NCBI GenBank assembly: GCA_018238625.1
Contig: JABCSY010000058.1
Coordinates: 1-24,568, forward strand
Length of the DNA: 24,568 nt
DNA from: Promethearchaeota archaeon
GTDB lineage: Archaea; Asgardarchaeota; Lokiarchaeia; Sigyniarchaeales; SOKP01
Direction: 5' to 3'
The translations under genes were made by a program, and so were the position numbers. Shown piece after piece: positions 1 through 16,479 of the stretch; position 1 is the stretch's first letter, and every line of letters starts with the position of its first letter. Under the pieces are notes generated by a model. The model ran no database searches. It saw only the letters and a program-made list of their open reading frames with translations, and was not told the origin of the DNA.

Positions 1-189
1 CTCTGTAGCTGCTTTTGACATTACGGAAACTACATCCGCTCCTAAACGCATTAATACTCTACAAATAATTGGAGCGTTAATAACCGCAACCGAGCCAGTT
101 AAACACATACATATAGTTTTTCCTCTTAAGATCGTTCCCTTGCTTTCTATAATGTCCTTGGATGGGTGCTGTAATCTGTCTTTTACCAT
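1..189 (-). CDS. coaBC: Bifunctional phosphopantothenoylcysteine decarboxylase/synthetase CoaBC, N-terminal part (runs off the window edge)
   Basis: Manual translation from ATG at 189: MVKDRLQHPSKDIIESKGTILRGKTICMCLTGSVAVINAPIICRVLMRLGADVVSVMSKAATE. The HPSKDI start, the LTGSVA flavoprotein motif and LMRLGADV..VMSKAA are typical of archaeal CoaBC. Not in the ORF track. Confidence 0.9.
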   Translation of the reverse strand, partial: MVKDRLQHPSKDIIESKGTILRGKTICMCLTGSVAVINAPIICRVLMRLGADVVSVMSKAATE

Positions 190-456: not shown

Positions 457-1647
457 ATGGAAAAAATTTGTGATCTCCATATTCACAGTAAATATTCAGG
501 CGGAACTAGCACCCAAATAAATATTAATAAGATCGCACATAACAGTAATATAAAAGGAATAGAGATTATTGGTACAGGAGATTGTTTCCATCCTTTATGG
601 TTAAAAGAATTACAAGAAAATTTATGCGAATACTCAAATGGTATTTTTTTTTTACCAAAAACTCCTCGAGTAAAATTTATTTTGCAATCAGAAGTAGAAT
701 TGATGTGGACGCAAAATTCTCAGATAAAAAAGGTTCACTTCATTGTATTAGTTCCAAATTTTGATAAATTAAAAGAGATCTATGAATTTATAATTAATTT
801 TGGCAACTTAAAAATTGATGGTAGACCTGTACTAAATATTTCAGCAGAAAAATTTATTTTAAAAATGAATAATATTGACGATATGATTGAGGTTATTCCT
901 GCCCATATTTTCACACCATTTTATGGCATTTTAGGAAGCAAATTACATTTCAATTCTTTAAAAGAAGCGATAGGTCAAGGGATAAATTATATACACGCAA
1001 TTGAAACAGGATTGAGTGCCGATCCTAGTATGATTAGACAATTATCAGAATTAAATAATCTTTCGATAATTTCAAATTCAGATAGTCATTCACTCAACTT
1101 TCATAGACTTGGAAGAGAAGCAACTGCATTAGAATTAAATAATATTGATTATCATAATGTTATTGAATCAATCCGGAAGAAAAAGATCACAAAAACATAC
1201 GAGTTTAATCCATCTGAGGGGAAATATTATTACGATGGGCATCGCTCCGATCGTCATTCTTCTGGCAAAGATTATTTTTGCAGTCCAAAACGGAATTTAA
1301 TTAATTGTCCGGTCTGTGGAAAAATGCTCACGAAAGGTGTTTTATCAAGAGTTTATGAATTAAAAGATCAAGAAATTCCAGTAATTGAAAATTTTCAATA
1401 TATAATTCCCTTGTTACATTTGATTGCGATAGTTTATGGTGGGTCTGAATATAGCAAATACAATGTGTCTTTATATAGAGATGTTGTTAACACCTACGAT
1501 GGAGAATTTAACATTTGGAATAAAGAATCTGTTTTTGAAGAAGTTCCTTTTGAATTAAGTAATGCCATTGAAAAGGTTAAATCTGGAAAGTATTGGTTTA
1601 TTCCAGGTCACGATGGGGTTTATGGTGAATTACAATTTGAAGCGTAG
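457..1647 (+). CDS. PHP-domain protein, endonuclease Q (EndoQ)/TIGR00375-like family
   Basis: Motifs DLHIHSKYS, GTGD, PAHIFTP, ETGLSAD, SNSDSHS, GKYYYDGHR, the Zn-finger-like CPVCG...KGV and a C-terminal PGHDGVYG match the EndoQ-family pattern. Confidence 0.8.
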   Translation: MEKICDLHIHSKYSGGTSTQININKIAHNSNIKGIEIIGTGDCFHPLWLKELQENLCEYSNGIFFLPKTPRVKFILQSEVELMWTQNSQIKKVHFIVLVPNFDKLKEIYEFIINFGNLKIDGRPVLNISAEKFILKMNNIDDMIEVIPAHIFTPFYGILGSKLHFNSLKEAIGQGINYIHAIETGLSADPSMIRQLSELNNLSIISNSDSHSLNFHRLGREATALELNNIDYHNVIESIRKKKITKTYEFNPSEGKYYYDGHRSDRHSSGKDYFCSPKRNLINCPVCGKMLTKGVLSRVYELKDQEIPVIENFQYIIPLLHLIAIVYGGSEYSKYNVSLYRDVVNTYDGEFNIWNKESVFEEVPFELSNAIEKVKSGKYWFIPGHDGVYGELQFEA

Positions 1648-1672
1648 CAAAAATAACTAATTTACGCTTCAA
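1637..1672. terminator. 10-bp inverted repeat overlapping the EndoQ-like stop codon; possible terminator between convergent units
   Basis: TTGAAGCGTA (1637-1646) and TACGCTTCAA (1663-1672) with a 16-nt loop, followed by AT-rich sequence. Confidence 0.4.
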
Positions 1673-1706
1673 TTATATTAAATTAAAATATTTTTTAAAT
1701 TACCCA

Positions 1707-1752
1707 TTTTAAAAAAGAAAGGAAAATAAGTGATGTTCTTACAACAAACATC
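1707..1752 (-). terminator. Hairpin plus pyrimidine tract downstream of micropeptide copy 1
   Basis: GATGTT-N9-AACATC (1732-1752), followed on the minus strand by ACTTATTTTCCTTTCTTTTTT. Confidence 0.5.
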
Positions 1753-1755
1753 TAA

Positions 1756-1785
1756 TTATGGTCCTGTACCGTCCTGACCAGGCAT
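1756..1785 (-). CDS. Putative 9-aa micropeptide MPGQDGTGP (copy 1)
   Basis: ATG CCT GGT CAG GAC GGT ACA GGA CCA TAA. SD-like GTGAG lies 4 nt upstream (1790-1794) and TTAAATA at 1815-1821. Frame, start and stop are conserved in copy 2. Confidence 0.6.
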   Translation of the reverse strand: MPGQDGTGP

Positions 1786-1925
1786 TTTTCTCACTTTGTT
1801 TGTTATGTGAATTGTATTTAACTAATTTTTTTTTTATTTAAAAACGAAATAAAACTATATAGAATACATTTTGTTAAATTGTAAGCTCTATTTAATTATA
1901 TTAGAATATTTTATTAAACGACTCT

Positions 1926-1972
1926 TTTTAAAAAAGAAAGGAAAATAGGTGATGCTCTTATAAAAAGCATCA
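1926..1972 (-). terminator. Hairpin plus pyrimidine tract downstream of micropeptide copy 2
   Basis: TGATGCT-N9-AGCATCA (1950-1972), followed on the minus strand by CCTATTTTCCTTTCTTTTTT. Shows a compensatory base change relative to copy 1. Confidence 0.5.
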
Positions 1973-1974
1973 AT

Positions 1975-2004
1975 TTATGGTCCTATACCTTCTTGACCAG
2001 GCAT
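1975..2004 (-). CDS. Putative 9-aa micropeptide MPGQEGIGP (copy 2)
   Basis: ATG CCT GGT CAA GAA GGT ATA GGA CCA TAA. GTGAG lies 5 nt upstream (2010-2014) and TTAAATA at 2035-2041. Confidence 0.6.
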   Translation of the reverse strand: MPGQEGIGP

Positions 2005-2322
2005 TATATCTCACTTAATTTGTTAATTGAAATGTATTTAACTTCTTATTCTTTTTAATTTGGAGCCAAATGGATGATTAATGTTTTTTTTTTCAAGCCT
2101 ATTTATTAGTTTGACTAAATTTATTTAAACTCCTAAAAAAGTGAAAAGTGATTAGGATAAAATAACCAACTCATGCTTTTAGGGATTTTTAAATATAATT
2201 TTTTATCAATGTAGGTCAAAATAATTTTAAATTCTTTACATCATCAAGTTTGGTGCTAAACGCTCTGGTGAAAAATGAAAGAAACTTTAAGAAGTATTCT
2301 TTGATGTAAATACAACGAAGTG

Positions 2323-3525
2323 TTATATTAAATCTGAAGGTAAAATTGGATTAACGAGAAGATATCGAAGATCTTTAACTGAAGGAGGTTCTCCGTACTT
2401 GTGCTTAATGAGATTGCTTCCAAGGTTATACAAAAAAGCGTTTTTTGAATAAATTGGGTTAGAGATTTTTTTAAGTTGATTTTTTATGTTTTCTTTACTA
2501 ACAATTTCAAAATTTGTTCCATATCGTATTAATTCCTCGTCTTTATATTTATCAATAAGCGCATGATATGCAAAATTATACCAAAAAAGCGTTAATTTCC
2601 CTCTTACTTTGTTTTGTGCCATCATTATTTCGAGAGAATCTTCGTTTGATGAATCTGGACACAATTCTCGTAAACTAATTTCTACTGCTTCCCGATTTGA
2701 AAAGAGCACTTTTACTGCTAAATCTGCGATCCCTTCTGAAATTATTAATTTAGGGCTATGTAACAGTAGTAATGAGTGTTCAAATTGATTTAATTCGTGA
2801 TATAACACTCTTTCTTTGATAGTAAATTCTGTATGATGTCCAGGATAGGCTTCATGTGCGGCAGCAAACAAAAATGCGGTCCAATACATGTTATAATTCG
2901 GATTAACCTCAATTCGGGAGCGAGAATTACCCATATACCAATTATAATAAGCCCATTTTACGTTATCGTTATTTTTAATTAATTCTAAAACAATTCGTTC
3001 TTTTTGAGGTAAGAAGTTGACAAATAACTCTTTAGTTCGCTCTCTCGTGATGCTAAGAGCTTTTTTAAATAATTCAAATACCTTACTCTCAGGAACAGTT
3101 CGTCGTACTCTTAAATCGTTCATTCGCTTTTCTAAACTTCCAAGACCACCATACGCTGCGTTAAACTCTTCTTTTAAGTTGTCCAACTCAGTTTCGTTAA
3201 CGGGCTGTAAGGCTACATCAAATAACCTTAAAAATTGTTCCTTAATAGAAATCTCGATACCATCTAGGATTTCGATCGAAGTCCTCATCGCTGTTAACAT
3301 TTTTTCTAAGTATCGCTCGCGTTTTTTATCGTATCCTTGTTTAAACAAATCTTCTTGTAGAGCTTTACAATCGGCTAACAGTTTGTTTGGTGATGTTATA
3401 GCCTCATTGTCAACAATTTTGCGTATTTTTTTAGGACCAATATAGAAATCAACATATCCCTTATTGTGTTTGTCTATGCGAAGCGGTAAATGTAGAAATT
3501 TTCTCCCATATTCAGATAATTTCAT
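2323..3525 (-). CDS. DUF885-like putative zinc metallopeptidase
   Basis: AHEAYPGHH (the HExxPGHH motif of DUF885) plus a downstream SEGIA glutamate. ATG at 3525 (MKLSEYG...) is preferred over the track's TTG at 3558. Confidence 0.7.
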   Translation of the reverse strand: MKLSEYGRKFLHLPLRIDKHNKGYVDFYIGPKKIRKIVDNEAITSPNKLLADCKALQEDLFKQGYDKKRERYLEKMLTAMRTSIEILDGIEISIKEQFLRLFDVALQPVNETELDNLKEEFNAAYGGLGSLEKRMNDLRVRRTVPESKVFELFKKALSITRERTKELFVNFLPQKERIVLELIKNNDNVKWAYYNWYMGNSRSRIEVNPNYNMYWTAFLFAAAHEAYPGHHTEFTIKERVLYHELNQFEHSLLLLHSPKLIISEGIADLAVKVLFSNREAVEISLRELCPDSSNEDSLEIMMAQNKVRGKLTLFWYNFAYHALIDKYKDEELIRYGTNFEIVSKENIKNQLKKISNPIYSKNAFLYNLGSNLIKHKYGEPPSVKDLRYLLVNPILPSDLI

Positions 3526-3881: not shown

Positions 3882-4301
3882 ATCAGTCTAAGACAATACA
3901 ATACGGAATTAGGATTGCTCATAGATAAGATTGTTAAAGTATATCTAGAGAAAGACAAATTCTTTGTTGGAAAATTAAAAGGTGTTTCGGAAGATTCGAA
4001 CTTGGTTTTAAATCACGTGAAAAACGAAAAAGGTAAAACATTCCCAAAAATGTTGATAAGAAGTAGTTACTATCATTTTGTAACGGTAGAAGAAGAGCCG
4101 TTCCCAATGCAAGCTTTGGCAGATAGAATTGCTACGATTTTTTCAAAAGGACATGTGAACTATATTGAAGATCAAAATATTATATCAATTTTGAATGGGA
4201 AAATTATAGTAGATGAGAACGGAGTGAGAGGAACTGGTCCTTCTGCTGAACGCGTAAAGAAGATATACGATCAATTTAGTATTGATTTAGAAAAGGACTA
4301 A
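3882..4301 (+). CDS. SmAP3-type Sm/Lsm RNA-binding protein (Sm domain plus Lsm_C domain)
   Basis: Sm1 motif VKVYLEKDKFFVGKLKGV...NLVL, Sm2-like MLIRSS, and a C-terminal VDENGVRGTGPSAERVKKIYDQF as in SmAP3. Start is uncertain: TTG 3915 (track) or ATC 3882 behind GAAGGTG. Confidence 0.85.
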   Translation: MSLRQYNTELGLLIDKIVKVYLEKDKFFVGKLKGVSEDSNLVLNHVKNEKGKTFPKMLIRSSYYHFVTVEEEPFPMQALADRIATIFSKGHVNYIEDQNIISILNGKIIVDENGVRGTGPSAERVKKIYDQFSIDLEKD

Positions 4302-16029: not shown

Positions 16030-16479
16030 TCATTGGGTGTTTCTTTTAGCGAACAAGGATTTTAACTCACCCATAATAGCACCTCTTAGACTTACAGGGC
16101 TGGCTGGACGGGCGCCTCCGGGACCTCCAGGTGGTGGCGGTGGACTTCCGGGTGGACCTCCAGGTGGACCTCCAGGTGGACCTCCAGGTGGCCCTGCCAT
16201 AGGTGGTGGGGCACTACTTGGGGCTGTGGGCGCTGCAATGACTGGGGCGGCCCCAACTCCTCTCGTTCTAAGTGCCGAAACATCATTATTTATGGAATTG
16301 ATTCGCGATTCTAATGTTGAAATTCTTTGACCAACAGCCGCTAAAGATTGATCTACTAAATCTGGTATCCTTAGAATCATTATCATCATTTTTTCAACAA
16401 CATCGCCAAATGTATTTAACTTTTCTTCAAGGGGGGCTTTTCTTGTTTCTTGCATGAAATTTGCGAAATCTTCGGCCAT
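16030..16479 (-). CDS. Coiled-coil plus proline-rich protein with C-terminal WH2/VASP-like amphipathic helix
   Basis: Heptads VGQRISTLESRINSINNDVSALR, then PPPMAGPPGGPPGGPPGGPPGSPPPPPGGPGG, then SLRGAIMGELKSLFAKRNTQ. ATG is preceded by purine-rich GAGAGAG. Confidence 0.8.
   Translation of the reverse strand: MAEDFANFMQETRKAPLEEKLNTFGDVVEKMMIMILRIPDLVDQSLAAVGQRISTLESRINSINNDVSALRTRGVGAAPVIAAPTAPSSAPPPMAGPPGGPPGGPPGGPPGSPPPPPGGPGGARPASPVSLRGAIMGELKSLFAKRNTQ
16139..16198. repeat. Coding 12-bp tandem repeat (GGTGGACCTCCA)
   Basis: Three perfect copies at 16151-16186 with one degenerate copy on each side. Encodes the GPPG/GGPP repeat of the 149-aa protein. Confidence 0.9.

Follow-up and report, generated by a model that had tools for sequence, protein, structure and literature searches.

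The contig JABCSY010000058.1 of the Promethearchaeota archaeon assembly GCA_018238625.1 (24,568 nucleotides (nt), the whole stretch of DNA analysed here and called the window from now on) carries, between a PHP-domain gene and the gene of a peptidase-like protein, a tandem duplication in each copy of which lies a minus-strand frame of only nine codons. The question that this locus raises is whether frames so short can be genes at all, and what their products might do. An earlier note on this DNA had read them as a pair of self-contained nonapeptide genes in which the N-terminal motif of the DUF5320 proteins is expressed as a free peptide. We describe them here as members of a large family of such frames within a single group of Asgard archaea, called minigenes in this work, whose position, nearly always behind a zinc-peptidase-like gene, suggests a partnership between peptide and enzyme. 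The two frames of the window are the following.

1756..1785, minus strand: minigene A, ATGCCTGGTCAGGACGGTACAGGACCATAA, nine codons plus TAA, encoding MPGQDGTGP
1975..2004, minus strand: minigene B, nine codons plus TAA, encoding MPGQEGIGP

The observation of duplicated nonapeptide frames is confirmed and lies far beyond chance, because a covariance model built from 14 units (a unit being one minigene with its surrounding signals) gives the two copies E values of 3.6e-22 and 4.0e-21, with 18 copies detected in the genome as a whole. The tandem duplication spans 1691-2060 of the window, and its unit of about 219 bp is just as the earlier note had put it, with direct repeats at 1691-1786 / 1910-2005 (96 nt, 84% identity) and 1789-1835 / 2009-2055 (47 nt, 81% identity), both pairs being spaced by 219-220 nt. 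Correct as well were the three base differences between the 30-nt minus-strand frames, namely CAG/CAA (synonymous), GAC/GAA (D/E) and ACA/ATA (T/I), and the elements said to flank both copies, a GTGAG motif, a TATA-like box, a hairpin and a T-tract. In genome G026, the representative of another species, the orthologous locus holds an identical frame for minigene A, and the counterpart of minigene B is MPGQEGTGP, with two synonymous changes and one nonsynonymous change. In the comparison of window positions 1641-2340 with G026:C72:1-830, identity jumps from about 93% to 100% near the terminator of the first minigene and stays at 100% through the second unit, a pattern that resembles a recent recombination tract.

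The pair is real and duplicated, as claimed, but it is not isolated. The genome of the window (4.29 Mb in 201 contigs, 32% G+C, completeness 97.9%, contamination 7.6%) gave about 15 copies when one unit was compared with it by BLASTN, and a pattern search recovered 19 frames of the form M-P-G-x5-P-stop, one of them ten codons long after the loss of one base. All 18 matches of the covariance model contain the frame. The model also finds matches in 14 of 36 other species of the same genus and, under strict filters and with many of the genomes incomplete, in none of the 24 genomes examined from 16 other genera of the class. Across related loci there are 36 frames that start with ATGCCNGGN and have at most 14 codons, of which 33 are nine codons long and end in Pro, two have ten codons, and one is cut by a premature TGA. 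The start codon, frame, length and stop are kept at homologous loci, where 33/36 frames read M-P-G-x5-P-stop, as had been expected of true genes. Probable decayed copies were also seen, such as the minigene at L060:1053 (G004:C174) with an in-frame TGA, MPGQT*TNP*.

The evidence that these frames are read as codons comes from 57 distinct units, selected by ATGCCNGGN, a purine motif at positions -15 to -4 and a downstream T-run. Outside this selection pattern, codon 9 is CCN in all 57 units, with A in 36, T in 10, C in 8 and G in 3 at the third base, and all four bases occur in the third position of the Gly3 codon too (T44, G5, C4, A4). Codon 10 is TAA in 54/57 and the length is nine codons in 53/57, rarely ten. 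An in-frame stop within the five core codons was found in a single unit, compared with 7 and 13 units in the other two frames, and 2000 shuffles of the core bases gave a mean of 16.6 units with a stop and a minimum of 8. Some peptides recur, like MPGQAGAVP, found twice with two synonymous differences, MPGQAGGIP, also found twice, and MPGQPYIIP, found twice despite flanks of just 75% identity. Third-base variation sits on the conserved Gly and Pro codons, and the claim of the earlier note that these are real, self-contained peptide genes is supported, the frames behaving as such in their codon-level conservation. From these sequence patterns we consider it likely that the minigenes are translated.

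Between the conserved ends lies a hypervariable core. Residues M1, P2, G3 and P9 are invariant; variation at positions 4-8 is such that the 56 peptides comprise 50 distinct sequences, with restricted residue sets: Q/E/H/R at position 4, G (34), D (9), N (7) and Y (4) at position 6, I/T/A at position 7 and V/I/G/T/N at position 8. In a minimum spanning tree built on the 40 nt upstream, 26 edges join units with a flank identity of at least 85% (mean divergence 6%). On those edges the core diverges at 34% of synonymous and 39% of nonsynonymous sites, a ratio of nonsynonymous to synonymous divergence (pN/pS) of 1.13, and it therefore differs far more than the flanks do. This fits flanks held alike by homogenisation or strong constraint, with cores that stay distinct from one another; an alternative that also fits is that the cores are exchanged as units.

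The other constant feature of the family is the gene upstream on the same strand. The earlier note had missed this partner gene, together with the genome-wide family and the hypervariable core. The two genes that enclose the minigenes in the window are as follows.

2323..3525, minus strand: partner gene, for a 400-amino-acid (aa) protein like DUF885 and M32 carboxypeptidases, with the invariant motif HE(A/G)YPGHH and downstream SEGIA(D/E/N)
457-1647, plus strand: PHP-domain gene, convergent with the minigene pair

There are ten partner paralogs in the genome, 66-87% identical, and all ten have one to three minigenes on the same strand, 160-355 nt past their stop, which accounts for 16 of the 19 frames. 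Across loci, all 35 distinct close copies of the partner gene, 33 from the genus and two from a sister genus, are followed by at least one same-strand minigene. Among 36 genomes, matches to the covariance model occur in 11/11 with close copies of the partner versus 3/25 without, related genomes not being independent samples. Two enzyme genes, G016:C70:90186-91385 and G134:C46:39906-41102, have an internal TAG or TGA and are likely decayed.

The partner was modelled by AlphaFold from a 28-sequence alignment, with a predicted local distance difference test score (pLDDT) of 92.7 and a predicted template modelling score (pTM) of 0.91. The best structural matches of the model are DUF885, M32 and M3 peptidases, with which it shares its three-dimensional fold. 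The partner, a cytoplasmic protein of about 400 aa, thus has the fold of DUF885, M32, M3 and angiotensin-converting enzyme (ACE)-type zinc oligopeptidases, some 150 residues shorter than the solved DUF885 proteins. Residues H224, E225, H230, H231 and E264 are invariant in the 28 partner sequences. The Pfam DUF885 model hits all ten paralogs weakly, the best one with an E value of 4.1e-4 and 20.5 bits, below the cut-off of 32.4 bits. Pfam places DUF885 in the Peptidase_MA clan, according to a passage of PMC12572635, and the papers that hold the term DUF885, as far as these were searched, give no function for it. A profile search with the partner reached solved structures at chance level only (E of 0.087 and worse), NCBIfam gave no match on the partner, and a PADLOC match to AbiEi (14.6 bits, E 0.0054) was treated as chance.

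Database searches returned 638 homologs of the partner at E<=1e-3; the best 120 of the 638 are all close and either unnamed or called 'hypothetical protein'. The closest named records are metagenome-assembled genomes (MAGs) titled Promethearchaeota archaeon, and distant homologs, at 25-38% identity, come from a Hodarchaeota-titled MAG and many bacteria. No plausibly placed minigenes were found behind the bacterial or Hodarchaeota-titled homologs, nor any DUF5320-like frames beside the bacterial ones (loci L106-L185). In the sister genus, three loci of a distant enzyme clade have a convergent mini-frame ending in Pro (L100:1424-1459, L102:1426-1461, and downstream at L105). These read MPHGPGGTVIP twice and MHVAQEPVLP once, each with a Shine-Dalgarno-like motif, a hairpin and a T-tract.

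Enzyme gene and minigenes together form a cassette, of which there are 0 to 10 copies per genome. The site occupied at loci L079, L082 and L083 (genomes G030, G010 and G034) has the enzyme gene and one or more minigenes between the PHP-domain gene (457-1647 in the window) and a gene of 786 aa. In G007, G004, G031, G005 and G035 (loci L189-L193) five species in all, the same site is empty, the PHP-domain and 786-aa genes converging directly so that their stops are about 10 nt apart. The insert in G010 and G034 is flanked by a decayed second copy of the last 65 or so codons of the 786-aa gene, and in the window genome the 786-aa gene adjoins another cassette, on contig C164. Presence and absence at the same site and the variable copy number make the cassette an accessory unit, polymorphic by insertion and deletion. 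Genes of CoaBC/Dfp-like flavoproteins, at window positions 1-189 (minus strand; contig C188) and C164:6790-8085, each flank a cassette, and these two regions may be paralogous, or the bin, with its contamination of 7.6%, may mix two strains. Downstream of yet another cassette (L067:6295-7683, G000 C24) there is an open reading frame (ORF) whose product has both an intein splicing domain and C2H2 zinc fingers; the genes of RtcB and archease come shortly after it.

Each minigene is surrounded by signals of its own, which in the window are distributed as follows.

1790..1794, minus strand: GTGAG, Shine-Dalgarno-like, 4 nt ahead of the ATG of minigene A
2010..2014, minus strand: GTGAG, Shine-Dalgarno-like, 5 nt ahead of the ATG of minigene B
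1814..1822, minus strand: proximal TATA-like box GTTAAATAC of unit A
2034..2042, minus strand: proximal TATA-like box GTTAAATAC of unit B
1732..1752, minus strand: hairpin A (GATGTTT / GAACATC), with compensatory changes across units
1950..1972, minus strand: hairpin B (TGATGCTTTT / AAGAGCATCA), with compensatory changes across units
1711..1726, minus strand: T-tract TTTTCCTTTCTTTTTT after hairpin A
1930..1945, minus strand: T-tract TTTTCCTTTCTTTTTT after hairpin B
1888..1900, minus strand: TATAATTAAATAG block in the spacer between the two units
2117..2134, minus strand: distal block AGGAGTTTAAATAAATTT, with a T-run before it

The 3' end of the 16S rRNA in this genome is ...GGATCACCTCCT, part of which is complementary to GTGA, and the purine motifs ahead of the ATG in the family (GTGAG, GGAGTGAT, GAGGTAA, GGTGG) match this anti-Shine-Dalgarno end. 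The AA core of the proximal TATA-like box, a putative promoter, is invariant in 14/14 aligned units. Hairpin and T-tract begin 3-4 nt past the minigene stop, and the T-tract after hairpin A is likely an archaeal termination signal. Between copies the hairpin changes from GATGTT/AACATC to GATGCT/AGCATC, a compensatory change, and three of the seven predicted hairpin pairs show double changes in the 14-unit alignment, where no conserved structure other than this terminator hairpin was found. The block at 2117-2134 (TTTTTTAGGAGTTTAAATAAATTT) is the best-conserved non-coding element among all ten cassettes, with AGTTTAAATAA kept in at least nine of the ten, and is likely the promoter of the minigene array; it resembles a terminator T-run followed by an archaeal promoter, going by the TATA consensus. 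A plus-strand ORF antisense to minigene A (1758-1841) was discarded as not conserved, its ATG being absent in 22/57 units and its length going from 2 to 24 codons. A scan of the whole window against Rfam at E<=1 gave no match in 1600-2400; the sole match in the window, flavi_FSE at 16121-16177 (plus strand; 21.9 bits, E 0.52), is below the gathering score and was treated as chance. One RNA contig was noted over the enzyme gene, a metatranscriptome contig covering 2502-2739.

A second subfamily, linked to transporters of the major facilitator superfamily (MFS), has an unalignable leader and a longer hairpin, CTCCCGC...GCGGGA, and keeps the GAGGT motif, the nine codons, MPG (or MPA/MPS) and P-stop. 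Its peptides include MPGTANTTP, MPGNCNTTP, MPGTADATP and MPGCADSIP. The minigenes located in G000 are these, with further loci at L216-L235.

C36:15456-15485, minus strand: second-subfamily minigene
C43:22047-22076, plus strand: second-subfamily minigene

An MFS_1 gene lies directly 3' on the same strand at 7/12 loci and is convergent at one more, and at three loci a DUF7064/DUF7065 protein is encoded upstream of the minigene. Second-subfamily minigenes may encode a leader peptide of the pump or an exported peptide.

What the products of the enzyme-linked minigenes might do is a matter of proposal. That the minigenes are transcribed and translated, that their products bind, and the direction of their effect are all points that we infer. 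The hypothesis that we favour, whose chances we would put at about even, is that translated, proline-capped nonapeptides are ligands of the adjacent peptidase-like enzyme. Each unit would be a transcription unit of its own, with TATA-like box, ribosome-binding-like purine motif, nine codons, hairpin and T-tract, and the nonapeptides would be dedicated, cognate ligands of the neighbouring enzyme. Enzymes of this fold enclose short oligopeptides in a channel, so that a ligand of nine residues would suit them. The invariant ends, the Met-Pro-Gly start and the C-terminal Pro, could shield a free short peptide from exopeptidases and would in particular make it a poor substrate for an active site of the carboxypeptidase type; the variable core of five residues would decide which paralog each peptide fits. 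An N-terminal X-Pro and a C-terminal Pro resist exopeptidases, the M32 carboxypeptidase Taq is described as releasing any C-terminal residue but Pro, and the proline-ended nonapeptides of snake venoms are the classical ACE inhibitors, all of which would make it more probable that the peptide occupies or inhibits the enzyme than that it is degraded. The most likely role would therefore be that of a cognate inhibitor or occupancy ligand, antidote-like in spirit, which suits a cassette with the behaviour of an accessory or conflict module. As a close second, the peptide would serve as a specific substrate or signal, to be removed by the enzyme. A broader picture, possible but doubtful, is that of a hypervariable recognition system in which each peptide is the key for one DUF885 metallopeptidase paralog (as antidote and toxin, self-identity or pheromone-type system), related peptides are handled by MFS pumps, and cassettes spread and diversify like selfish or conflict modules.

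The MFS genes of the second subfamily, same-strand and downstream at 7/12 loci and convergent at one more, lend themselves to two other explanations. In one of them, rather unlikely in our view, the nonapeptides are exported, for example via MFS pumps, as a pheromone-type signal or antimicrobial, and the enzyme is not their target but a processing, turnover or immunity factor of the producer. A hypervariable core amid conserved flanks, as seen here, is typical of pheromone or bacteriocin polymorphism, the patchy, multi-copy distribution points the same way, and a precedent exists in the microcin C operon, where a 7-codon gene stands together with an MFS pump and an immunity peptidase. However, no transporter is found within the 5 kb scanned around the enzyme-linked units, the window pair included, these have no signal sequence and no modification enzyme, and it is equally possible that the MFS-linked units encode leader peptides of the pump genes. 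The latter possibility belongs to the other explanation, an improbable one for the family as a whole, by which it is not the product that matters but the act of translating MP...P-stop, which would control whether transcription ends at the hairpin, how stable the RNA is, or a neighbouring gene. The ribosome is slow at Met-Pro, Pro-Gly and Pro-stop, and the invariant positions are found exactly at the start and end of the frame, around a core with a pN/pS of about 1.1. The hairpin and T-tract only 3-4 nt past the stop, and the attenuator layout of mini-frame, terminator and gene at the MFS-linked loci, can be counted in its favour too. Ribosome-controlled termination is known behind mccA (PMC4231749). 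Nevertheless, there is nothing downstream to regulate in the window and most cassettes, where the next gene is convergent (the PHP gene) or another minigene, and in arrays each of two or three different units has its own terminator. Nor would regulation of this type account for specific core sequences kept between species via synonymous changes, or for the restricted residue sets at core positions 4, 6, 7 and 8.

Two further explanations deny that the nine codons constitute a gene of their own. The units could be non-coding small RNAs of about 85 nt, with a single-stranded 5' part, a variable 15-nt seed and a terminator hairpin with U-tail, the frame being incidental. Seed-type small RNAs do have a similar layout, constant-variable-constant and closed by a 3' hairpin with U-tract, a start at about -7 is what one would predict from the proximal TATA-like box, and synonymous and nonsynonymous sites of the core diverge alike. 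We regard this as having a slim chance, given that variation at the conserved Gly and Pro codons is confined to third bases (codon 9 is CC in 57/57 with N free), in-frame stops are depleted (1/57 against 16.6 expected), the nine-codon length is fixed in 53/57 units, and the second subfamily shares with the first the peptide-level pattern only; moreover, there is neither an Rfam match nor conserved structure other than the terminator hairpin. The link to DUF5320 (PF17253), the part of the earlier interpretation that is not supported while the peptide genes themselves are, would make them remnants or offshoots of that family, either nonsense-truncated pseudogenes or its N-terminal motif freed as a peptide. 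True DUF5320 genes of this genome start with MPGGDRTGP or MPRGNRTGP and match the Pfam model from position 1, and MPGQDGTGP shares 7/9 residues with MPGGDRTGP. Yet the motif does not define the peptides, since just 6 of the 50 distinct ones fit MPxx[DE]G[TI]GP and their only invariants are M1, P2, G3 and P9. Read-through of both copies, with TAA as X, gave no Pfam match at E<=10, DUF5320 included, whereas a true DUF5320 gene of the genome (C39:9064-9414), used as control, scored 82.5 bits and 5.4e-23 against the cut-off of 27 bits. A hairpin conserved by compensatory change follows the stop, and no long continuous DUF5320 ORF, the form that relatives of a truncated gene had been expected to show, is present at these loci. 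In comparisons between species ATG, length and stop show purifying signals, which are at odds with decay, and the pseudogene version is contradicted. An origin from a DUF5320 5' end keeps a small probability, and we hold the DUF5320 explanation as a whole to be very improbable.

Against the ligand hypothesis itself several observations have to be set. Some of the regularity of the 57-unit set is there by construction, as ATGCCNGGN, the purine motif and the T-run are invariant by selection in all or part of it, and a core pN/pS of about 1.1 also suits a spacer that merely needs to stay open. Transcription from the proximal TATA-like box would begin at about -7 and put GTGAG outside the RNA or at its very start. 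Assembled contigs from three RNA or RNA-labelled runs include none over 1700-2140, which is no evidence either way. The metal motif of the partner, HExxxxHH, has a spacing unlike the classical HExxH, which leaves metal binding and catalysis putative. As for the linkage, three of the 19 genome frames are not beside an enzyme gene, and a distant, mostly single-copy enzyme clade has same-strand minigenes at 0/15 loci. In G031 (88% complete) no enzyme gene was found and the second subfamily, present there, adjoins MFS transporters, so the peptides can apparently act without the enzyme. Finally, with 7.6% contamination of the bin, the copy number of ten may be inflated.

The minigenes belong to none of the known systems compared here, and no published description of them was found in the literature searched, as far as that search reached. 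The closest layout is that of mccA, the gene of the 7-codon microcin C precursor. An intrinsic terminator directly behind the mccA frame yields a short, abundant message (PMC4231749). The likeness is one of layout only: a stand-alone frame of fewer than ten codons with its own ribosome-binding site, a terminator and a linked dedicated enzyme. The 83 ORFs that lie up to 5 kb from the 19 minigenes include none with a Pfam family of the MccB-type (ThiF/E1-like) adenylating enzymes, and the MFS pump that forms part of the microcin C system is seen here in the second subfamily only. The C-terminal Asn or Asp that becomes the warhead in microcin C is replaced by Pro in 56/56 full-length peptides. 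Here the peptide gene is behind the enzyme gene rather than in front, the partner is peptidase-like, the host is an archaeon, and there are many paralogous cassettes with a hypervariable core.

In RRNPP cassettes (Rap-Phr, AimR-AimP) a small peptide gene lies behind the gene of an all-helical receptor of about 400 aa, the cassettes are paralogous, and the mature peptide is variable and cognate-specific. The minigenes resemble them in the same-strand position directly downstream of the partner (35/35 close copies), in the all-helical nature and size of that partner and in the many paralogous cassettes, but the partner has a DUF885/M32-like fold and not one of tetratricopeptide repeats, and frames of 9 (rarely 10) codons have no export signal or pro-region. 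Bradykinin-potentiating peptides are excised from long venom precursors and act on a foreign enzyme, while in this case each peptide has its own gene beside its presumed target, which it would putatively inhibit. The N-terminus MPxx[DN]xTGP of DUF5320 proteins resembles the two window peptides, although a terminator and not coding sequence follows the minigene stop and the family model gives no match. With leader-peptide attenuators the family shares a mini-frame followed by hairpin and T-tract, but no gene follows the window pair or most cassettes in their own orientation, such a gene being present only in the MFS-linked subfamily, at 7/12 loci.

If translated, the minigenes would join mccA among the shortest functional genes known, as the first such archaeal case and the smallest genes proposed in archaea, in the lineage closest to eukaryotes. 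Gene callers, none of which reports genes of nine codons, would then be missing a whole class of products. The pairing offers a concrete candidate ligand for the uncharacterised DUF885, which if true would be the first physiological one, and the hypervariable core in conserved flanks, repeated over at least ten cassettes in a genome, is a sign of specificity or conflict. For uncultured Asgard archaea this could open a new way to study how peptides are recognised and perhaps how cells interact.

The cassette of the window also adjoins, at 3915-4301 (plus strand), a gene whose 128-aa product has LSM and Lsm_C domains. Transcripts of the minigenes would have U-rich tails of the type that Sm-like proteins bind, but this vicinity is probably coincidental.

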